Positions 5,287 to 20,031 of a DNA stretch of 24,000 bases are shown here, in pieces (positions within the stretch are counted from its first letter, which is position 1; each line of letters begins with the position of its first letter). A model generated the notes under the pieces. That model was given only the letters and a program-made list of their open reading frames with translations, did not search any database and had not been told where the DNA came from. The stretch is from Caminicella sporogenes DSM 14501. GTDB lineage: Bacteria; Bacillota; Clostridia; Peptostreptococcales; Caminicellaceae. A program made the position numbers and the translations under genes. Where the stretch lies: positions 233,262-257,261 of the forward strand of contig NZ_FRAJ01000003.1 of the NCBI RefSeq assembly GCF_900142285.1. The letters run 5' to 3'.

Positions 5287-7158
5287 CTATATCTCCTTCT
5301 TTTTTAATAATTCTAATATACTCAAAGCAATACTTTTAAAATCTAATTTATATTCTTTAAAAAGAACATCTACACTTCCATGCTCTACAAATTTATCTGG
5401 AAAACCAAATATTTTAAACTTTTTACCCTTTATTCCATTTTCATTTAAAAGTTCAAGTACTCCACAACCAAAACCACCTGATTTCACATTATCTTCAAGT
5501 GTTATTACAGTATCAATATTTTTAATTTCATTCAATATAGTATCTTTATCTAATGGTTTTACAAATCTACTGTTTATTACAGTTGTCATTATACCTTCTT
5601 TTTCAAGTAATTTAGAAACTTCTAGTCCCGTTTTAACCATTTTTCCAATGGCTATAATGCACACATCTTTACCTTTTCTCAAAATTTCTGCTCTATCTAC
5701 ATTATTTTTTTCATCAATACATAAATCTTCACTAACTCCACGAGGATACCTAATAGCTATTGGACTTTCCTGCTTAAAAGCATATTCAAGCATTTTTTCA
5801 AGCTCTTTTCCATCTTTTGGTGCAAGAATTTTTAAATTTGGTATGTGTCTGAGATATGATAAATCAAAAACTCCATGATGAGTTTCACCATCTTGCCCAA
5901 CTATTCCTGCTCTGTCAATTGCAAAAACTACAGGCAAGTTTTGAAGACAAACATCATGAATAATTTGGTCATATCCTCTCTGAAGAAAAGTAGAGTAAAC
6001 TGCAAATACTGGTCTTATACCATTTGCCGCTAAACCTGCTGCAAAAGTAACTGCATGCTGCTCTGCTATCCCGACATCATAAAATCGTTCAGGAAATTTG
6101 CTGGCAAATAAACTTAATCCCGTTCCTGATGGCATAGCTGCAGTAATAGCAACTATTCTAGAATCTTTTTCAGCAAGTTTAACAAGAATTTCTCCAAATA
6201 TTTCTGAATAAGTTTTAGATGAATTTACCTTTAATTTTTTACCAGTTTGAATATTAAACGGTCCTATACCGTGAAATTTATCTGGATGTTTTTCAGCAAA
6301 GCTATACCCTTTTCCTTTTCTAGTTTTTACATGAACTAATATAGGTCCTTTAATATTTTTAGCTCTTTTAAAAACTTCTATTAAATCTTCAATATTATGT
6401 CCATTTACAGGACCTAAATAAGTAAATCCAAGTTCTTCAAATATAATACCGGGAACAAAAAAATATTTAATAGTATCTTTTGTCTTTTGAGCAGTTCTTA
6501 CCACTGATTCACCAATTGCCGGTATTTTTCTAAGTAAACTTTCTACATCATCTTTAACCTTAAAATACGTAGGTGCTGTTCTTATCCTATTTAAATATTT
6601 TGAGAGTCCTCCAACATTTTCAGAAATTGACATTTCATTATCATTTAATACAACTATAAAATCCGTTTTTGAATGACCCGCATGATTTAAAGCTTCAAAA
6701 GCCATTCCTCCTGTTAAAGCTCCATCACCTATTACAGATATTATTGAATATTTTTCTCCTTTTAAATCTCTCGCAAGTGCCATACCAAGTCCAGCTGAAA
6801 TAGAAGTACTGCTATGTCCTGTTTCAAAACTGTCATGTATACTTTCTTTAATCTTTGGAAAGCCACTTAAACCCTTAAACTGCCTTAATGTATCAAACTG
6901 TTCTTTTCTGCCAGTCAATATTTTATGTACATATGCTTGATGCCCAACATCCCATATTATTTTATCTTCTGGACTGTTAAAAACTTTATGCAGTGCAATA
7001 GTAAGTTCTACAACTCCTAGGTTTGAAGCTAAATGTCCTCCTGTAACAGATACTTTTTCAATCAAAAACTTTCTTATTTCACTTGACAATTTTTTTAATT
7101 CTAATAAATTCAGTTTTTTAAAATCGTCTAGCCCATTTATTTTAGATAAAATATTCAT
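5287..7158 (-). CDS. dxs: 1-deoxy-D-xylulose-5-phosphate synthase
   Basis: The 623-aa ORF contains GHLASNLGVVELTIALH, the TPP motif GDGALTGGMAFEALN...NDN, and DRAGIVGQDGETHHG. Full-length Dxs architecture. Confidence 0.95.
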   Translation of the reverse strand: MNILSKINGLDDFKKLNLLELKKLSSEIRKFLIEKVSVTGGHLASNLGVVELTIALHKVFNSPEDKIIWDVGHQAYVHKILTGRKEQFDTLRQFKGLSGFPKIKESIHDSFETGHSSTSISAGLGMALARDLKGEKYSIISVIGDGALTGGMAFEALNHAGHSKTDFIVVLNDNEMSISENVGGLSKYLNRIRTAPTYFKVKDDVESLLRKIPAIGESVVRTAQKTKDTIKYFFVPGIIFEELGFTYLGPVNGHNIEDLIEVFKRAKNIKGPILVHVKTRKGKGYSFAEKHPDKFHGIGPFNIQTGKKLKVNSSKTYSEIFGEILVKLAEKDSRIVAITAAMPSGTGLSLFASKFPERFYDVGIAEQHAVTFAAGLAANGIRPVFAVYSTFLQRGYDQIIHDVCLQNLPVVFAIDRAGIVGQDGETHHGVFDLSYLRHIPNLKILAPKDGKELEKMLEYAFKQESPIAIRYPRGVSEDLCIDEKNNVDRAEILRKGKDVCIIAIGKMVKTGLEVSKLLEKEGIMTTVINSRFVKPLDKDTILNEIKNIDTVITLEDNVKSGGFGCGVLELLNENGIKGKKFKIFGFPDKFVEHGSVDVLFKEYKLDFKSIALSILELLKKKEI

Positions 7159-7172
7159 ATAATACAGTCATC

Positions 7173-7814
7173 TCACTTTCCTTTTTTTTTGTTGACTTTC
7201 TTTTTCTTATTATTGGGCAGAATTCCTATTTTAAACTTATAACTCAACCAATTTAACAACTTTGCTACAAAAAATACTATTTCTTTTGATTTTCTCAGTG
7301 CAATTTCTTTTCCAAATGCTTTTCCTCCAACTGTTAAAGCAGCTACTACTGCACTTAATATTATACTAAATATAGCCGTATCAATGTTTTTATATATTTT
7401 ACTAATCTGTATAAGTATTATTGCTCCAGCAGCACCACTAATTATACCTGCTATATCTCCTATAACATCGTTACAAAAATTTGAAACCGGTCCTGCATTT
7501 TGTATTAATCTAATAGCTTCCTTTGCACCTTTAATACGCTTAGAAGCCATTGCATTAAAAGGTCTTTGGTCTGCCGTAGCTACTGCTATACCTATAAGGT
7601 CAAACACAATTCCTATGAATATAATAATAATTAAAACTAGAAAAGCTATTCCTATAGAAGCATTTCTAAGAAGTGCTTCAGAAATAATACTCATTCCTAT
7701 AGCTAAAATAAAAGTAATTATTGTAACATTTATAATCCATTTAAAATTATAATTTTTTATAGATTTTATAGCAATTTTTATACGATTTATTTTTTTTCTT
7801 TTAGTTTTATTCAA
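7173..7814 (-). CDS. oapA: Small 4-TM membrane protein with basic termini; candidate OLE-associated protein OapA
   Basis: The 213-aa ORF has four hydrophobic segments, including IGIAFLVLIIIIFIGIVFDLIGIAVA and VIGDIAGIISGAAGAIILIQI. The N-terminus is Lys/Arg-rich (MNKTKRKKINRIK) and the C-terminus is Lys-rich (NNKKKKVNKKKGK). The TTG start follows GAGGTG. It lies directly downstream of the structured RNA island and upstream of dxs, the position reported for oapA. The assignment rests on context and topology, not a verified alignment. Confidence 0.65.
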   Translation of the reverse strand: MNKTKRKKINRIKIAIKSIKNYNFKWIINVTIITFILAIGMSIISEALLRNASIGIAFLVLIIIIFIGIVFDLIGIAVATADQRPFNAMASKRIKGAKEAIRLIQNAGPVSNFCNDVIGDIAGIISGAAGAIILIQISKIYKNIDTAIFSIILSAVVAALTVGGKAFGKEIALRKSKEIVFFVAKLLNWLSYKFKIGILPNNKKKKVNKKKGK

Positions 7815-7897
7815 TGTTTATACCACACCTCATTAATAAAATAGTTTTTTATAAGACAACTTAATTACTATTTTGTTAAAATTTACCCACATTAATC

Positions 7898-7925
7898 AAA
7901 AAAAACTGATAGCAAAAGCCATCAG
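7898..7925 (-). terminator. Intrinsic terminator-like hairpin at the 3' end of the structured RNA
   Basis: The minus strand reads CTGATGGC-TTTT-GCTATCAG followed by eight T. One stem pair is G-U on the minus transcript but A-C on the plus strand, which supports minus-strand function. Confidence 0.6.
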
Positions 7926-8520
7926 TATACTAACACTTGAGGGTAGTATATTAAGTAAACTTTGCGGCTTAGGTCTAGTAGGATTTCCCATATGGGTACT
8001 GTTCTGTTGCCAGATCAGCGGTTTCCCTTTAAACCCATATTTATACTGTCGCCAAGTATAAGACTAGACTACCACTAAGTCCGCACTGTAATCCTTAATA
8101 TACCTTCACGTGGAAACAGTCTAGGAGTTTTCCTCAACAGGCATACTAATTCCTAGCCTCTTTTGCAGAATAGGTTTAGAATAGCAATGCTTTAATATTA
8201 CGGGCCCATAATATTAAAGCTGAATCTATTCATCCACCTATTCCACTCAAGGCAGGCTACACTGCATGTAGCAGAAATCTACCACATGCAGGTTCATCCT
8301 AATCCCTTTCGAGATTTAGGTCTCCACGGAAAGAGGGTCGCCGTCCACATGCCATTGTGGATCGCCCCCTATTCCTTACTCCCAGCATCAACCCCTGACT
8401 GGGCGTCAGAAGCCAATACCAGGAACTTCATCGATGTGCCCTTTGACGGATTTTTAGCCCCGCCTTCAGAATTAGATGCTCTGACTAGAATACTGCACCA
8501 CTCAAGTGTAGAAGATATTA
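7926..8520 (-). ncRNA. ole: OLE-class (ornate, large, extremophilic) structured ncRNA
   Basis: The island is G+C-rich: by hand count, 34 of 60 nt are G/C at 8341-8400 versus 6 of 60 at 7741-7800. It has no credible ORF. A 9-bp long-range helix pairs 7933-7941 with 8501-8509. Many local helices are present: 8189-8200/8209-8220, 8262-8269/8284-8291, 8344-8349/8356-8361, 7990-7997/8033-8040, 8121-8126/8151-8156, and a GAAA-capped hairpin at 8298-8320. Three helices contain pairs that are G-U only on the minus transcript. The flanking order ispA ... RNA, 4-TM gene, dxs is the hallmark OLE locus. Not confirmed with a covariance model. Confidence 0.75.
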
Positions 8521-8541
8521 TAACATAAATTAAATAATTTA

Positions 8542-8985
8542 TCAAATAAGTATATTAGCAATTAATATGCCAAGAAAAGCTCCTGCAAAAACTTCAATTG
8601 GAGTATGTCCTACAAGTTCTTTCAATCTACCTTCTTCTATTTGTCTGTGCTTTTGTTTATCTTCTAAAATTTTATTTAATATTATAGCCTGTTTTCCAAC
8701 AGCACGTCTAACTCCAGCCGCATCATACATTACTATCAAAGCAAAAACTAATGATACTCCATATAAAGCAGAATCCCATCCATTTTTTAATCCAACTGCA
8801 GTTGAAAGCCCCATTACCATAGAAGAATGAGAACTCGGCATTCCACCAGAACCAACAAATCTATAAAGATTTAACTTTTTTTGAGTCAGCAAAGTAATAA
8901 TTACTTTAAGAGCTTGTGCTATAAACCAGGAGGTAATTGCTACATTTAATATTTCATTTCTAAAAATCTTTGGTAAAAATGCCAC
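8542..8985 (-). CDS. Divergent PAP2 / DUF212 (YuiD-like) membrane protein
   Basis: The 147-aa ORF carries the family motifs GGMPSSHSS, VMYDAAGVRRAVGKQA and GHTPIEVFAGAFLG. The GTG start is 7 nt after AGGAGG. Confidence 0.8.
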   Translation of the reverse strand: MAFLPKIFRNEILNVAITSWFIAQALKVIITLLTQKKLNLYRFVGSGGMPSSHSSMVMGLSTAVGLKNGWDSALYGVSLVFALIVMYDAAGVRRAVGKQAIILNKILEDKQKHRQIEEGRLKELVGHTPIEVFAGAFLGILIANILI

Positions 8986-9000
8986 TTCATTTCCTCCTAA

Positions 9001-9891
9001 CTAATAATCTCTTACTTCTAAAAATCTTGATAATTCTCTTAAAAAATCAGCTTTTTCCCCAAATATTTCAAGCACATTTATACTGCGATTTATCAAATCT
9101 TTAGCTATTTTTTTCGATTTATCAACACCGAATAAAGATACATAAGTACTCTTATCATTATTAAAATCACTACCTACTTTTTTACCAAGTTTTTTTTCAT
9201 CTCCAACAACATCTAATATATCATCTACTATCTGAAAAGCCAGTCCTATATTTCTTCCATATTCTGAAAGTGCTCCATATTCTTGCTCATTTGCTCCACC
9301 AATTATAGCACCTGCCTTAATAGATGCTTCAATCAAAGCTGTTGTCTTTTTCAAATGAATAAACTCTAATGTTTCTTTGTCAATTTCTTTTCCTTCAGAT
9401 TCCAAATCTACAACTTGTCCACCAATCATTCCCTCTACTCCGGCTGCTTTTGCTATCTCAAACATAGCCTGTATACCTTTATCTTTATCAATTTTTCCAT
9501 CAATAATTTTTTTAATCATAGTTTCAAATGCAAGATTAAGCAATCCATCACCAGCTAGTATAGCTATTCCTTCACCAAAAACTTTATGATTAGTCAGCTT
9601 ACCTCTTCTGTAATCATCATTATCCATAGCCGGTAAATCATCATGTATTAAAGAATATGTATGTATCATTTCAATAGCACAAGCAAAAGGCATTACATCA
9701 TCAATTTTTCCACCCAACATATCACAAACTTCTATCATTAAAACAGGTCTTAATCTCTTTCCTCCTGCATTAATACTATAAGCCATTGCTTCAAAAATTG
9801 TCTTTTGAAAACCATTTTTAGCTACAAAATATTTTTTTAATTCTTCATCTACTCTGCTTTTTTTGGACAATAATAAAGTTTTAAAATCCAT
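9001..9891 (-). CDS. ispA: Farnesyl/geranyl diphosphate synthase (polyprenyl synthetase)
   Basis: The first Asp-rich motif is LIHDDLPAMDNDDYRRG and the second is FQIVDDILD. I place the start at ATG 9891 (MDFKTLLL), 6 nt after GAGGAGG, which lies in the xseB 3' end. The longer ORF-track start at 9915 is unlikely. Confidence 0.9.
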   Translation of the reverse strand: MDFKTLLLSKKSRVDEELKKYFVAKNGFQKTIFEAMAYSINAGGKRLRPVLMIEVCDMLGGKIDDVMPFACAIEMIHTYSLIHDDLPAMDNDDYRRGKLTNHKVFGEGIAILAGDGLLNLAFETMIKKIIDGKIDKDKGIQAMFEIAKAAGVEGMIGGQVVDLESEGKEIDKETLEFIHLKKTTALIEASIKAGAIIGGANEQEYGALSEYGRNIGLAFQIVDDILDVVGDEKKLGKKVGSDFNNDKSTYVSLFGVDKSKKIAKDLINRSINVLEIFGEKADFLRELSRFLEVRDY

Positions 9892-9892
9892 T

Positions 9893-10138
9893 TTATTCCT
9901 CCTCATACACATCAAAAGGCTGAGTCTTTATTTCTCCATCTTCATCATGTAATAATAAAGATATCTTTTGCTGTGCACTATTTAAAACATTTATACATCT
10001 TCTATAAATTTTAATCCCTTCTTCAAAATACTTTAGTGAATCTTCTAAAGAAAGATTTCCTTCTTCTAATAATTTTACTATATCTTTTAATCTATTTAAA
10101 TCTGTTTCAAAACTTTTATTTTGAGTATTATCTGTCAA
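9893..10138 (-). CDS. xseB: Exodeoxyribonuclease VII small subunit
   Basis: The 81-aa ORF reads FETDLNRLKDIVKLLEEGNLSLEDSLKYFEEGIKIYRRC, which is typical of XseB. The TTG start follows AAAGGAG and overlaps the xseA stop. Confidence 0.88.
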   Translation of the reverse strand: MTDNTQNKSFETDLNRLKDIVKLLEEGNLSLEDSLKYFEEGIKIYRRCINVLNSAQQKISLLLHDEDGEIKTQPFDVYEEE

Positions 10139-11363
10139 TCAATTTATCTCCTTTCTCAATATTATCAACTGTACAATTCAAATAACCATCTCTCAATAAT
10201 ACTTTAATTTCATCTCTCAAATTTACATTTTCTACACTTGTTAGTAATTTATTATCACTGCTTTGAAGTATTGCAAACCCTCTTGACATCGTTGAAAGAG
10301 GACTTAAATTATTTAAATTATTTCCTAAATGAAAAAGCATTTCTTTTAATATTTCTACTTTTTTGTTTAAAATATTACTTATCTGACTATGCATATAATC
10401 AAGATTTTGATGTTCTTCTCTAATTTTATATAAAAGATATTTCTGCATTCTTTCTTCACTATAATTTTCTAATTTATGCTTATAATTTTCTATAAATTTT
10501 GAAATATTTACCTTTAAATTCCTATAATACAAATTCAGAGTATATTTAATATCTGATATAGTAGGAACAGCTATTTCTCCTGCAGCAGAAGGCGTTGGAG
10601 CTCTTAAATCAGCAACAAAATCAGAAATAGTAAAATCCGTTTCATGTCCAACAGCTGAAATTATCGGTTTTTTAGAATTAAATATACTATCAGCTACTAT
10701 TTCTTCATTAAATGGCCATAATTCTTCTATTGAACCTCCACCACGAGCCAATATTATCAAATCTACATCATCAATTTTATTTAATCTATCTATAGCTTCA
10801 GATATTTGAACACTTGCCCTATCACCTTGCACCAACACTGGAGATATTAAAATATCTACAAAATTATTTCTTCTTGTAATTACAGATATAATATCTCTAA
10901 TTGCAGCTCCAGTCGGCGAAGTTACCACAGCTATTTTCTTAGGAAAAAATGGTATTTTCTTTTTATATTTTGAATCAAAATAACCCTTTTTAAAAAGTCT
11001 ATTTTTTAACTTTTCAAATTCAATATATAAATCTCCAAGTCCTTCTTCTTCTAATTCATTAACATATAATTGATACTCTCCATTTTTGTCATAAATTGAA
11101 ATATAACCTTTTACAATTACTTTCATTCCATCTTTTGGCATAAACTTTAGTTTAACAAATTCACTACTAAACATTATACATTTCAGTTTACTTTTTTCAT
11201 CTTTTATTGAAAAATACACATGTCCACTGCTATGTAATTTAAAATTAGATATTTCGCCTTTAATAACTAAATTATTTAAAATAGGGTCATGTAATAAAAT
11301 TCTTTTTAAATAATTTGTGAGCTCAGTAACTGTTAAAATTTTAATTCGCATTGTTTTAAACAT
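10128..11363 (-). CDS. xseA: Exodeoxyribonuclease VII large subunit
   Basis: The 411-aa ORF has an N-terminal OB-fold (LTVTELTNYLKRIL...GEISNFKLHSSGHVYFSIKD), the core ARGGGSIEELWPFNEE and GHETDFTI. The true start may be the second ATG at 11351 (MRIKILTV). Confidence 0.9.
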   Translation of the reverse strand: MFKTMRIKILTVTELTNYLKRILLHDPILNNLVIKGEISNFKLHSSGHVYFSIKDEKSKLKCIMFSSEFVKLKFMPKDGMKVIVKGYISIYDKNGEYQLYVNELEEEGLGDLYIEFEKLKNRLFKKGYFDSKYKKKIPFFPKKIAVVTSPTGAAIRDIISVITRRNNFVDILISPVLVQGDRASVQISEAIDRLNKIDDVDLIILARGGGSIEELWPFNEEIVADSIFNSKKPIISAVGHETDFTISDFVADLRAPTPSAAGEIAVPTISDIKYTLNLYYRNLKVNISKFIENYKHKLENYSEERMQKYLLYKIREEHQNLDYMHSQISNILNKKVEILKEMLFHLGNNLNNLSPLSTMSRGFAILQSSDNKLLTSVENVNLRDEIKVLLRDGYLNCTVDNIEKGDKLIDR

Positions 11364-12205
11364 GCCTCCAATGTATTTTCTAATAGCATAGCAATTGTCA
11401 TAGGTCCTACTCCACCCGGTACAGGCGTAATATATGACGCTTTCTTTACAGCACTATCAAACTCAACATCTCCAACAAGTTTTCCATCTACAACATTTGT
11501 TCCAACGTCAATTACTATACAATTTTCTTTGAGCATATCTCCTTTTATCAAATTAGCCCTTCCTGCTGCTGCCACTACAACATCTGCTCTTAATAAATGC
11601 TCTTTTAAATCTTTAGTTTTTGAATGACAGAGTGTAACTGTAAGATTTTCTTGCTGCAATAGTTCTGCAACAGGCTTACCTACTATATTACTTCTACCTA
11701 CAACAACAGCATTTTTACCCGTTAAATCTTGATTTATACTCTTGATGAGTTCTATAACACCTTTTGGAGTACATGGTAAAAAGCTCTTTGAGTTTGAATA
11801 CAACATACCCACATTTATTGGATTAATACAATCAACGTCTTTTTCATAAGAAAGTGCAAACTTAATTTTATTTTCATCTATACCTTTAGGAAGTGGAAAT
11901 TGAATTATTATTCCATTTATTTTTTCATTTTTATTTAAATTATTTATTAAATCTAATATTTCATCTTCTGATACATTTTCAGAAAGTAAATGTTTTTCAC
12001 TATAAAAATGTACTTTTGTACATTTTTTGATAATAGTATTTACATAAACCTCTGAAGCTTTATCATTTCCTATATATACAACTGCAAGTCCCGGAACTTT
12101 TCCATATTTGTCAGATAGATACTTTACCTTTTCTTCAATTTCTATTAACCTCTTCTTTGAAATTTCTCTTCCATTAATTATATTACTCACTATATCTCCC
12201 CCCAT
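11333..12205 (-). CDS. folD: Bifunctional methylenetetrahydrofolate dehydrogenase/cyclohydrolase
   Basis: FolD motifs are present: PGLAVVYIGNDKASEVYV, LPCTPKGVIELI, VVVGRSNIVGKPVAELL and TPVPGGVGPMTIAML. An alternative and probably better start is GTG 12190, 5 nt after GGGGGAG. Confidence 0.92.
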   Translation of the reverse strand: MGGDIVSNIINGREISKKRLIEIEEKVKYLSDKYGKVPGLAVVYIGNDKASEVYVNTIIKKCTKVHFYSEKHLLSENVSEDEILDLINNLNKNEKINGIIIQFPLPKGIDENKIKFALSYEKDVDCINPINVGMLYSNSKSFLPCTPKGVIELIKSINQDLTGKNAVVVGRSNIVGKPVAELLQQENLTVTLCHSKTKDLKEHLLRADVVVAAAGRANLIKGDMLKENCIVIDVGTNVVDGKLVGDVEFDSAVKKASYITPVPGGVGPMTIAMLLENTLEACLKQCELKF

Positions 12206-13145
12206 TTAATCCTAATAAAGCAATGCCAACTGCATTATCTGTAGAATAATGTGGCTTACTAAGATAAACATTTATGCCTTCTCTTTTAAGCCTTATAAAT
12301 AAATTATCTCTTATAAAACTATTTGATGCAACTCCTCCGACTAATAAAACATCATTTATTTTTGTCTTTTTGCAAGAATTTTTGATTACTTCAAATAAAG
12401 ATTTATAAATACACTCAAATAGTGCTACTGCTATATCTGAATTATTATATATTCTGCTCTCAATAATTCTTTTTACATGAGTTTCTGTTCCAGAAAAATT
12501 TATGTATGTACCTTCTGTACTTACCGGCAGCTTAATCTTACCTAATACTCCATTTTTTGAAAGTTTATCCAATTCTTTACCTGAAGGAAAATTTAATCCC
12601 ATCATAACTCCTATTCTATCAATCAATTGTCCTGCACTAATATCTTTAGTAGCTCCAATTATCTGTACTTTAAATTTATTATCTATTTCACACACTTTAA
12701 GAATTTCCGTTGTCCCACCAGAAATATGAACTGCTATGTAATCTCGTATATCCAACATCTCTGCAGACCATTTCCCAGCAGCTATATGACCTTCTTGATG
12801 ACTATATTCTTCATAACTAGTTTTTAACATAGCTGCTATTGTTTTTCCAAAAGATGTACCCGCTAAAAAAACAGGCATATATGATTCAGGCAAATTTCTG
12901 GGTTTATTGCTTGCAGAAACTTTTGATATTTTATTTATATCCACTTGACTAGCAAGTTTTTCAAAAAGTATTGGCAAATTTTTGATATGCTGAAATAATG
13001 CTTCTGACTGCCTAAGACCTCTTAAACCTCTTTTAACTTTTAAAACTTGCCTACTATCAAACATTAATTTTTCATTTTCATCGACTACAGCTATAGAAGT
13101 AGTATAACAGCTTGTATCTATTCCCAAAAAATACTTACTCATCAT
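12183..13145 (-). CDS. Kae1/TsaD-family (glycoprotease/M22-like, ASKHA fold) protein, divergent paralogue
   Basis: The 320-aa ORF contains GIDTSCYTTSIAVV, a His-x-x-Gly-His metal motif (SHQEGHIAAG), ISGGTTEIL and LLVGGVASNSFIRD. These motifs parallel TsaD, but the protein is shorter and substituted at several canonical positions. Confidence 0.65.
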   Translation of the reverse strand: MMSKYFLGIDTSCYTTSIAVVDENEKLMFDSRQVLKVKRGLRGLRQSEALFQHIKNLPILFEKLASQVDINKISKVSASNKPRNLPESYMPVFLAGTSFGKTIAAMLKTSYEEYSHQEGHIAAGKWSAEMLDIRDYIAVHISGGTTEILKVCEIDNKFKVQIIGATKDISAGQLIDRIGVMMGLNFPSGKELDKLSKNGVLGKIKLPVSTEGTYINFSGTETHVKRIIESRIYNNSDIAVALFECIYKSLFEVIKNSCKKTKINDVLLVGGVASNSFIRDNLFIRLKREGINVYLSKPHYSTDNAVGIALLGLNGGRYSE

Positions 13146-13548: not shown

Positions 13549-13661
13549 TATAAATCCTCCTTTGCTGAATATGTTATTTTAAATTTTATTTTTTACATTT
13601 TTTTCTTTAAGATACATCTCAATCGAAATTCAATAAGTTCTTATGTTATAATAACATAAAT

Positions 13662-13683
13662 TAACTCCCTAAAAAGGGAGTTA
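13662..13683 (-). terminator. Hairpin after asp23, a possible partial terminator
   Basis: The minus strand reads TAACTCCCT-TTTT-AGGGAGTTA, a 9-bp stem. It is followed by ATTTATGTTAT, an interrupted T-tract, so termination is probably only partial. Confidence 0.45.
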
Positions 13684-13715
13684 GTCATTTTTTCGATATT
13701 ATTATCTATATTAAA

Positions 13716-14885: not shown

Positions 14886-15473
14886 TTATTTTTTTTCATA
14901 TACTTTAACTTTATAACTTTTTATTTGAAAAATCGTTGTAACTGCATCAATAAGTGCACTTTTCACCTTTGGATTACCAGCACCCTCAGCTACAACTATT
15001 ACCCCCCTTACTATAGGTTTTATTTCTTTTATTACAACAGGTGCATTTTTATAATCGCTATTATTTAAAGTTACAATCTGCTCAGTAATATTTTCTTGTG
15101 TAGTAGTTCTCGTCCCACCCTGACTGTCATTTTCTTTAGTAGTTTGAAGAGATTTTGTAATATTTGAAGCTGGAACAACTTCAGAGCTAGTTTCATAAGT
15201 TATCATTACATCTACATCACCTACTCCATTTATTTGACTCAATATTTGTTCTAATTTCTTGTCTATACTATCTGTATAAAAATATTCATTTTTTTCTATT
15301 CTTGATGTCTGTAAACTTTCAATCTTTTCTGTTGATTTATTTTCTTTAGGATAAAAAGTACTCCACGAAATTAGCAGTATAATACATGATATAATTACTG
15401 CTAAAAAATTATATATCGTCTTTTTTATATTTTGAGTTGCTATAATATCCTTTAACTTTTCTATGATTTTCAC
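14886..15473 (-). CDS. spoIIIAG: Stage III sporulation protein AG
   Basis: The ORF has an N-terminal TM segment. Its ring-building motif region reads GVGDVDVMITYETSSEVVPA...VRGVIVVAEGAGNPKVKSALIDAVTTIF. The start is GTG after GGGGGTGAGGA. Confidence 0.82.
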   Translation of the reverse strand: MKIIEKLKDIIATQNIKKTIYNFLAVIISCIILLISWSTFYPKENKSTEKIESLQTSRIEKNEYFYTDSIDKKLEQILSQINGVGDVDVMITYETSSEVVPASNITKSLQTTKENDSQGGTRTTTQENITEQIVTLNNSDYKNAPVVIKEIKPIVRGVIVVAEGAGNPKVKSALIDAVTTIFQIKSYKVKVYEKK

Positions 15474-19617: not shown

Positions 19618-20031
19618 TTATTCTTCATCGTCATCATTATCAAAACTGCAGCAATCACAGTCTTCAGATAAATAAATCTTTTCATTACAATTTGGACAAG
19701 TAATCTCTACTTCGTCACAATCATCAAATAAATCATCTTCAACATAAATTTCTTCACCACATGTAGGACATTCTATCATTTCAAAATCATCATCTAACTC
19801 TTCATATTCTTCATAATAGTCATCTTCTAAATCTGCTAAATCTTCATCTATGGCTTCAACATATTCATCTATTTCTTCAATTTCATCATCTATGTATTCT
19901 ATTGCATCTGCAAAGTCTTCCAATACATCTATTATGTAACCTAAAAGCTTCCCTTCCTTTGAATTTAAATCCAATTCCATTCCTTCTGCTAAGCCTCTTA
20001 AATATGCAACTCTTTCACTTAAATAACTCAT
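19618..20031 (-). CDS. Highly acidic zinc-ribbon protein of unknown function (resembles the clostridial CD1247-type N-terminal domain family)
   Basis: The 137-aa ORF has a helical N-terminus (LSERVAYLRGLAEGMELD...LLGYIIDVLEDFADAI) and a long Asp/Glu-rich tract. The Cys pairs CPTCGEE and CPNCNEK are followed by CDCC. The family name is recalled from memory, not searched. Confidence 0.6.
   Translation of the reverse strand: MSYLSERVAYLRGLAEGMELDLNSKEGKLLGYIIDVLEDFADAIEYIDDEIEEIDEYVEAIDEDLADLEDDYYEEYEELDDDFEMIECPTCGEEIYVEDDLFDDCDEVEITCPNCNEKIYLSEDCDCCSFDNDDDEE

Follow-up and report, generated by a model that had tools for sequence, protein, structure and literature searches.

What does the G+C-rich island upstream of oapA and dxs in the genome of Caminicella sporogenes DSM 14501 encode? 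The island occupies positions 7926-8520 of the window analyzed here (the whole 24,000-nt stretch of contig NZ_FRAJ01000003.1, to which all coordinates refer unless a locus is named). Its G+C content is 43.7%, against 28.0% for the whole window, and a preliminary description made from the letters of the DNA had proposed that it specifies a large non-coding RNA of the OLE (ornate, large, extremophilic) class on the minus strand. The compositional jump reported there was recovered on recounting (34 of 60 nucleotides G or C at 8341-8400 versus 6 of 60 at 7741-7800), and the island is indeed the sole long non-coding stretch, with other internal gaps of at most 179 nt when a 67-aa open reading frame (ORF) at the spoIIIAC position is counted. 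Here we report that the island corresponds to the ole gene and specifies a canonical OLE RNA read from the minus strand (7924-8517), an assignment of which we are virtually certain and against which nothing in the data counts.

OLE RNA has been studied in Halalkalibacterium (Bacillus) halodurans, Clostridium acetobutylicum and C. botulinum, and the RNA of H. halodurans and two Clostridium OLE RNAs are abundant, very stable and homodimeric (PMC12265935, PMC12286853). The RNA binds OapA, OapB, OapC and bS21, is held at the membrane by OapA, and is required by cells to withstand short-chain alcohols, cold, excess Mg2+ and poor carbon sources (PMC12265935, PMC12286853); it may even lie across the membrane, through its helix P3 (PMC12265935).

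Identity of the island as an OLE RNA gene

The covariance-model scan of both strands that the preliminary description had proposed returned OLE (RF01071) as the single Rfam match in the whole window, with 594 nt of the minus strand (8517-7924) aligned to model positions 1-616 of 616 at 555.2 bits and E = 1.7e-160 (gathering score 50). In a permissive Rfam scan of 7700-8700, the best match to any rival RNA family was junk (E = 0.77), and no tRNA genes were found in the window, which rules out other RNA families as the identity of the island. Since 18 bona fide OLE loci from other genomes score between 464 and 558 bits, the window copy stands at the top of the normal range.

Structurally, projection of the Rfam consensus onto the window gave 146 canonical pairs of 152, the remaining six being non-canonical. 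Among the consensus pairs, 21 are G-U on the minus transcript but A-C on the plus strand, which confirms the minus-strand orientation that had been argued earlier from pairs of this kind. Thermodynamically, the minus transcript (8510-7897) has a minimum free energy (MFE) of -248.7 kcal/mol (z = -13.0 against dinucleotide shuffles), as compared with -191.7 kcal/mol (z = -8.2) for the plus strand of the OLE region, and these z-scores thus indicate a region that is structured far beyond chance, with the minus strand favoured.

Comparative evidence came from a search of species-representative genomes with a conserved OLE 23-mer, which yielded at least 120 loci (all locus counts given here therefore describe a sample); full-length copies were located by hidden Markov model, and 108 sequences were aligned with MAFFT (alignment A1). 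Under the Rfam structure together with the extra helices of the preliminary description, A1 was 84.1% paired, as against 41-47% when partners were slid by one to three columns, and its covariation score of 0.439, versus 0.10-0.15 in the slid controls, was reached by none of 500 shuffles. Every invariant column of the 108-sequence alignment is present in the window sequence, whose long conserved junctions and key segments are the commonest variants in the family. The roughly 25% of nearly invariant positions that mark OLE RNAs, including the long conserved junctions, are thus found in this copy. Column-based support was low (40-60%) for outer P1, P7 and distal P9, because MAFFT loses register in regions of variable length, and P1 was therefore tested by per-sequence duplex energies instead. 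The OLE class is already known, and the copy in the window is an ordinary member of it, with lineage-level details only.

Architecture of the RNA

Helix numbers used below were assigned from the text descriptions in the published papers rather than from their figures, and are tentative. The terminal helix, P1, is described in the literature, yet falls outside the structure line of the Rfam model. Its 5' strand (8497-8509: ACACUUGAG, a bulged U8500 and GGU) pairs with its 3' strand (7933-7944: ACC CUCAAGUGU), as supported by the MFE fold, covariation and the duplex test; the terminal pairing had been recognized in the preliminary description and is exact, ACACTTGAG (7933-7941) being the reverse complement of CTCAAGTGT (8501-8509), with GGU/ACC pairing beyond a single bulged nucleotide. 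The three inner pairs of P1 are 100% paired in A1 and covary (U-A in 62 sequences, C-G in 29 and U-G in 14), and the outer part is variable in sequence among species, with its complementarity kept. The median duplex energy was -12.9 kcal/mol for cognate 5' and 3' ends versus -7.3 kcal/mol for non-cognate ends (p = 3e-11).

Inside P1 lie two long-range helices. The 5' strand of a P2-like helix (8485-8496; GCAG..UCUAG, with a CUAG palindrome) pairs in the MFE fold through 8496-8493 and 8489-8485 with 8116-8124, and in the alignment this helix is 98.6-100% paired, with a variable pair that covaries between U-A and C-G. The adjoining P3/P3.1-like helix, of 15 bp with two 1-nt bulges, joins 8468-8483 to 8138-8153 in the MFE fold, and 13 of its 15 pairs show changes on both sides. 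Taken together, P2 and P3 are 92.3% paired, with a covariation score of 0.366 versus at most 0.115 in slid controls, and their 3' strands, which make up 8116-8153, flank a GAG-GAAAA-CUC hairpin (8125-8135). The P3/P3.1 stem is the one proposed to span the membrane (PMC12265935).

This arrangement decides the one point of structure on which the preliminary description erred. Eight helices had been put forward, and seven of them proved genuine: six coincide with Rfam consensus pairs and the seventh is P1. Those matching the consensus comprise the hairpins at 8189-8220, 8262-8291, 8344-8361 (with its AGGGGG/CCCTCT extension) and 8298-8320 (with a GAAA loop), together with the helix 7990-7997/8033-8040. 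The eighth, a local helix between 8121-8126 and 8151-8156 (CUAGGA/UCCUAG), shows real complementarity but is not a helix of the RNA; it clashes with Rfam pairs at C8156, C8125 and U8126, and its covariation score (0.067) lies below the shuffle mean of 0.083 and was reached by 496 of 500 shuffles. We thus reject it as a by-product of the CUAG palindromes, the bases concerned being paired in the covarying P2 and P3.

Cryo-electron microscopy (cryo-EM) of OLE dimers has identified as bridges an A-rich L4 loop, complementary L5 and L6 loops and a palindromic L9.3 loop (PMC12286853, PMC12265935), and all of these dimerisation elements are present in the window as CUAAAAAU, GCCCA, AAUGGCAU and GGGCCC (which contains GGCC), respectively. 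The hairpin bearing the A-rich loop CUAAAAAU (8445-8464; L4, dimer bridge B1) consists of Rfam consensus pairs, and its loop, assigned to the bridge after PMC12286853, is identical in 106 of 108 OLE sequences. It is followed by a long hairpin with the GCCCA loop (8379-8425; L5, bridge B2), which is 97.6% paired, and by the hairpin with the AAUGGCAU loop (8328-8375; L6, the kissing partner of L5), which contains the 8344-8361 hairpin and its AGGGGG/CCCUCU extension. Next come a 23-nt P7-type hairpin with a GAAA tetraloop (8298-8320), which is truncated, the Rfam alignment showing 2 nt in place of a 23-nt consensus stretch, and a P8-type hairpin (8262-8291; helices 8-9 are 88-94% paired and covarying); variation in the P7/P8 region is known natural variation (PMC12265935).

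The long P9 arm (8156-8253) ends in the tip hairpin 8189-8220, whose loop GGGCCC (8202-8207) corresponds to L9.3 and the kissing-loop bridge B3. The palindrome is GGGCCC in the clade of the window, AGGCCU in Marinisporobacter and UGGCCA in most Bacilli, and of the 106 sequences whose loop could be scored, 60 have complementary bases on either side of the central tetranucleotide. This complementarity could extend the intermolecular kissing helix to 6 bp, or could be a mere intramolecular loop-closing pair. The remaining 3' domain (7945-8115; P10-P15, or 'domain 2') includes the helix 7990-7997/8033-8040 and a conserved GGGAAAUCCUACUAGACCUAAGCCGCAAA segment, and its helices 22-28 are 78-99% paired with heavy covariation.

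Predicted promoter and 3' end of ole

A predicted proximal sigma-70-type promoter on the minus strand (8517-8545) adjoins the 5' edge of the Rfam match exactly. It consists of a -35 box TTGATA (8545-8540), a 17-nt spacer and a -10 box TATAAT (8522-8517) with an extended -10 TG, and at 11 of 12 matching positions it is the best sigma-70-like site in 10 kb. Transcription is predicted to start at about 8511-8509, the first base of P1. An equivalent promoter stands at the same position in 60 of the 107 OLE loci listed versus 5 of 540 control windows. The homologous promoter of B. halodurans drives transcription of OLE at a high level, and the 5' ends of the RNA fall at the start of P1 (PMC3413148). 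The promoter at the 5' end of ole is a family-wide and known feature.

At the other end, P1 is followed on the same strand by an intrinsic-terminator-like hairpin (7897-7926), CUGAUGGC-UUUU-GCUAUCAG (7926-7905; dG -12.9), with a U8 tract (7904-7897), and the ole transcript is predicted to end at this element. Terminator-like hairpins follow OLE in 10 of the 107 loci listed, several of them weak or overlapping the ribosome-binding site of oapA, which excludes a terminator as a family-wide OLE feature.

The stem of this hairpin has relatives of its own. Written as CUGAUAGC/GCUAUCAG, it recurs with different loops of 3-5 nt at OLE 3' ends in six other genomes (Ca. Petromonas, two Alkaliphilus, Dethiothermospora and two Tissierellaceae; L052:3506-3525, L021:5923-5942, L058:7280-7299, L041:3441-3459, L121:6863-6883 and L114:1571-1589), spanning Peptostreptococcales and Tissierellales. 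It was also found at OLE 3' ends on 10 metagenome contigs, including a compensatory C-G to U-A variant, among 120 metagenome matches to the stem, most of which are chance matches unrelated to OLE. In the window the stem occurs once, versus 0 expected by chance, and with no other copy in the 123 fetched loci or the window a general repeat can be dismissed. A DNA operator is unlikely as well, given that the arms stand 3 to 5 nt apart in different copies and that the C-G to U-A change keeps the RNA stem. The flanking A- and U-tracts suggest a bidirectional terminator. A plain terminator would not usually keep its stem sequence in two orders, as this hairpin does, and the loop varies in both length and sequence.

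Between the hairpin and oapA (7896-7815) no promoter scoring at least 9/12 was found, nor anything convincing by eye, and a separate oapA promoter in this interval was accordingly rejected. From this lack we infer that ole forms a transcription unit of its own, with oapA-dxs dependent on read-through, which would fit the response of B. halodurans to ethanol, where OLE rises about 7-fold and oapA mRNA only modestly (PMC3413148).

Alternative readings of the island

Both plus-strand ORFs mentioned in the preliminary description exist, so the island might be thought to encode a 62-aa (7873-8061) or an 80-aa (8286-8528) protein. They lack a ribosome-binding site, as had already been observed there, and neither is conserved in relatives, on which ground plus-strand coding was rejected: across twelve OLE loci the longest open frame is found on different strands and in different frames, it runs to 48 codons in locus L052 (90% nucleotide identity), and the substitutions seen across the family compensate RNA helices and show no codon pattern. 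We therefore give a protein practically no credence. Hardly more probable is a decayed or non-functional OLE remnant, for which the shortened P7 (2 nt versus a consensus 23) and the six non-canonical pairs could be cited. The match is full-length and at the top of the family score range, all invariant columns of the 108 sequences are kept, oapA is intact, and two strains with 31 other differences in 6.4 kb share the same ole sequence; the variation in P7/P8, moreover, is natural (PMC12265935).

A third reading, very unlikely but less remote than these two, accepts the RNA as OLE and changes its role. OLE and the terminator hairpin (7926-7897) would then act mainly in cis, as a giant attenuator or riboswitch-like leader controlling read-through into oapA-dxs, and not as a component of a trans-acting ribonucleoprotein. 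Such a leader would account for a terminator placed directly between ole and oapA and for the lack of a promoter of at least 9/12 before oapA, and the unequal ethanol response of OLE and oapA in B. halodurans fits a regulated or partial stop (PMC3413148). Yet with a terminator-like hairpin at just 10 of the 107 listed loci, attenuation cannot be the function of the OLE family, and no alternative pairing between the hairpin and OLE was found. From the perspective of size, 600 nt with about 25% invariant positions far exceeds what an attenuator needs, and published work describes one stable OLE species, about 600 nt long, which interacts with proteins and is located at membranes (PMC3413148, PMC12265935).

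Genomic neighbourhood

All annotated genes of the window lie on the minus strand. Along transcription they run from a pilin-like gene through comFB, aroK, aroQ, an M24 peptidase gene, efp, spoIIIAA-AH, an Asp23 (yqhY-like) gene, nusB, a TsaD/Kae1-like paralogue, folD, xseA, xseB, ispA and a DUF212 gene to ole, oapA, dxs, tlyA, argR, recN and spoIVB. We take this order to be that of the conserved yqhS-efp-spoIIIA-yqhY-nusB-folD-xseAB-ispA-dxs-yqxC-ahrC-recN-spoIVB region of Bacillus subtilis, relative to which ole-oapA, and the DUF212 gene, would presumably be an insertion between ispA and dxs. The segment ispA-(DUF212)-ole-oapA-dxs-tlyA-argR-recN matches the published OLE neighbourhood (PMC12265935). 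The ispA-OLE-oapA-dxs order given in the preliminary description stands in so far as ole precedes oapA and dxs, but ole does not directly follow ispA, as the DUF212 gene lies between them.

Directly downstream of ole, the oapA gene (7173-7814, minus strand), assigned from its position, hydrophobic segments and conserved motifs, encodes a 213-aa membrane protein (OLE-associated protein A). An oapA homologue follows OLE immediately on the same strand in 101 of the 121 OLE loci listed, and the window protein is 34-78% identical to homologues in other OLE loci. A Kyte-Doolittle scan predicts four hydrophobic segments between residues 23 and 168, with N- and C-terminal tails that are rich in lysine and arginine, and the conserved motifs are PFxAMA, RNAxxVSNFCNDVIGDI and TVGGKAxGK. 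Similarity to the CNNM transmembrane domain (PF01595) is weak (E 3.3e-5, 24.1 bits, below the Pfam threshold of 28.4); in the published view OapA is distantly related to MpfA-type transporters (PMC12265935). Next along the strand is dxs (5287-7158; TIGR00204, 862 bits), which encodes 1-deoxy-D-xylulose-5-phosphate synthase. The genes for OapB and OapC are located beyond the window.

Upstream of ole, the DUF212 gene (8542-8985, minus strand) encodes a 147-aa membrane protein of the divergent PAP2 family (PF02681, E 3.7e-51), and its stop codon overlaps the -35 box of the ole promoter; it is preceded by ispA (9001-9915, minus strand), the gene for farnesyl diphosphate synthase. An NCBIfam search gave no name for either the DUF212 protein or OapA. 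The ispA-DUF212-ole arrangement occurs in 17 of the 121 OLE loci listed, none of them named Bacilli, and the loci with a DUF212 gene before ole belong to Caloramator, Alkaliphilus, Marinisporobacter, Thermoclostridium, Ca. Petromonas and several metagenome-assembled genomes. A literature search for a link between OLE and DUF212, PAP2 or yuiD found none.

Could the 3' hairpin and the DUF212 gene be functional additions to the ole module of Peptostreptococcales and Tissierellales, rather than incidental neighbours? We consider this improbable. On such a reading the hairpin could be an extra structural or protein-binding element beyond a terminator, for instance a stability cap or a partner site, because its stem is kept across two orders while the loop and the variable OLE helices diverge, and the DUF212/PAP2-like phosphatase could be a lineage-specific partner. 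If this were true, DUF212 might tie the OLE-OapA particle to polyprenyl-phosphate/isoprenoid lipid metabolism, with ispA upstream and dxs downstream.

Elsewhere in the window, the gene between nusB and folD (12183-13145, minus strand) encodes a 320-aa TsaD/Kae1-family protein that scores 162.6 bits, far below the NCBIfam TsaD cut-off of 296, and is thus probably a paralogue; it is not known from the corresponding cluster of B. subtilis. A terminator-like hairpin that can be read on both strands (13660-13685) lies in the 167 nt that separate nusB from the Asp23 (yqhY-like) gene. Two ORFs on the minus strand are of less certain kinship: a 195-aa ORF at the expected position of spoIIIAG (14886-15473) is without a confident family, and a 137-aa ORF between spoIIIAA and efp (19618-20031) has a faint LITAF-like zinc-ribbon match only.

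Relatives and a second strain

Evolutionarily, the closest species representative among the OLE loci listed is Candidatus Petromonas tenebris (Clostridia; Peptostreptococcales), with 89.8% identity over 658 nt. The host is a member of the Clostridia with a low G+C content (28% in the window) and, with a spoIIIA operon and spoIVB in the window, presumably forms spores. The exact proteins of the window are also encoded in SRA run SRR4096545 and in GenBank CP126462.1. The latter (GCA_030166575.1), a complete chromosome of 2.48 Mb, is 99.52% identical to window positions 5542-11985; of its 31 differences none lies in ole, its promoter, the 3' hairpin or the DUF212 gene, and the score of its OLE is likewise 555.2 bits. 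A public complete genome of the same species thus already contains an identical ole gene.

Two observations concern other records. The oapA stop codon (7173-7175; L122:4828-4831) is lost in CP126462.1 through a substitution at window position 7175, so that oapA is called there at 219 aa instead of 213, six residues longer, and overlaps the start of dxs by 4 nt. A record titled 'Pseudomonas sp. ISL-84' (JAGGRA010000014.1, locus L074) carries a full OLE locus in the Bacillaceae-type order ispA-ole-oapA-dxs-tlyA-argR, and either its organism label or its assembly is probably wrong, by contamination or mislabelling.

Comparison with known systems and proposed working of the locus

Measured against known OLE RNAs, the window copy agrees in its length of 594 nt, its full consensus structure, all invariant nucleotides, the closing helix P1, the L4, L5/L6 and L9.3 loops, the proximal sigma-70 promoter at the start of P1, the ispA...ole-oapA-dxs neighbourhood and what appears to be an anaerobic spore-forming Bacillota host. 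It differs in the DUF212/PAP2-like gene between ispA and ole, in a strong terminator hairpin right after P1 that is absent from most OLE loci, in the shortening of P7 to a GAAA hairpin and in an L9.3 of GGGCCC versus the common UGGCCA. All of these differences are lineage-level variation and no departure from the class. Other large, highly structured and abundant non-coding RNAs are GOLLD, ROOL, the raiA motif and the RNA of the signal recognition particle (SRP); GOLLD and ROOL form homo-oligomers, as OLE does, and SRP RNA is membrane-associated. None of them gave a sequence or structure match in the window scans, however, and they belong to other hosts and contexts, GOLLD and ROOL being phage-associated and none of the four having an OapA partner.

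The protein partner has known counterparts too. As the immediate downstream neighbour of ole, with four predicted transmembrane segments, basic tails and weak, sub-threshold CNNM (DUF21) similarity, the window protein resembles OapA, and the transmembrane domain of the MpfA/CNNM-CorC divalent-cation transporters would be distantly related to it. Those transporters possess CBS-pair and CorC domains and work without an RNA; here both domains are missing, and the gene for the membrane protein is preceded by a 600-nt RNA gene. Overlapping Mg2+-related functions, and an occurrence anticorrelated with that of ole, have been proposed for these transporters (PMC12265935, PMC12286853).

How, then, might the locus work? 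Transcription from the sigma-70 promoter (8545-8517) would begin near 8510, where P1 has its first base, and a transcript of about 610 nt would end at the terminator hairpin and U8 (7926-7897). This RNA would fold into the family architecture, closed by the long-range helices P1, P2 and P3, with a 5' domain bearing the three dimerisation loop elements (L4, the L5/L6 kissing pair and the palindromic L9.3) and a conserved 3' domain. The next gene, oapA, would provide a membrane protein with four predicted helices and a possible kinship to the CNNM domain. With a terminator placed between the two genes, the RNA would greatly outnumber oapA mRNA, and oapA-dxs would depend on read-through for its expression. 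By analogy with the all-protein MpfA/CNNM relatives, OLE could supply the regulatory and scaffolding role of their CBS-pair/CorC domains. We tentatively posit that OLE may be the RNA subunit of an OapA-based particle for transport or sensing of divalent cations (Mg2+), a proposal to which we give close to, but not quite, an even chance.

Several points weigh against it. Ideas of OLE as a ribozyme, a sensor or a 'bTOR' master regulator coexist in the literature on its function, and ion transport by OapA is a hypothesis, not a measurement. At the level of transcription, read-through into oapA is deduced from the lack of a promoter of at least 9/12, and H. halodurans is reported also to transcribe the whole cluster polycistronically (PMC12265935), so that the terminator may be leaky, or the lineage of the window may differ.

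Significance

Among bacterial non-coding RNAs that lack an assigned biochemical function, OLE is one of the largest and best conserved, and the suggestion from cryo-EM of a membrane-spanning RNA dimer makes the class a genuine open problem. The copy described here leaves that problem where it was, as it is a canonical member in its context and the identical gene is public. Its practical value lies in the correct annotation of ole, oapA and the promoter and terminator of ole in this genome. In addition, the locus offers specialists two small comparative leads, namely the clade-conserved 3' hairpin and the recurrent DUF212/PAP2 gene that adjoins ole in Clostridia.

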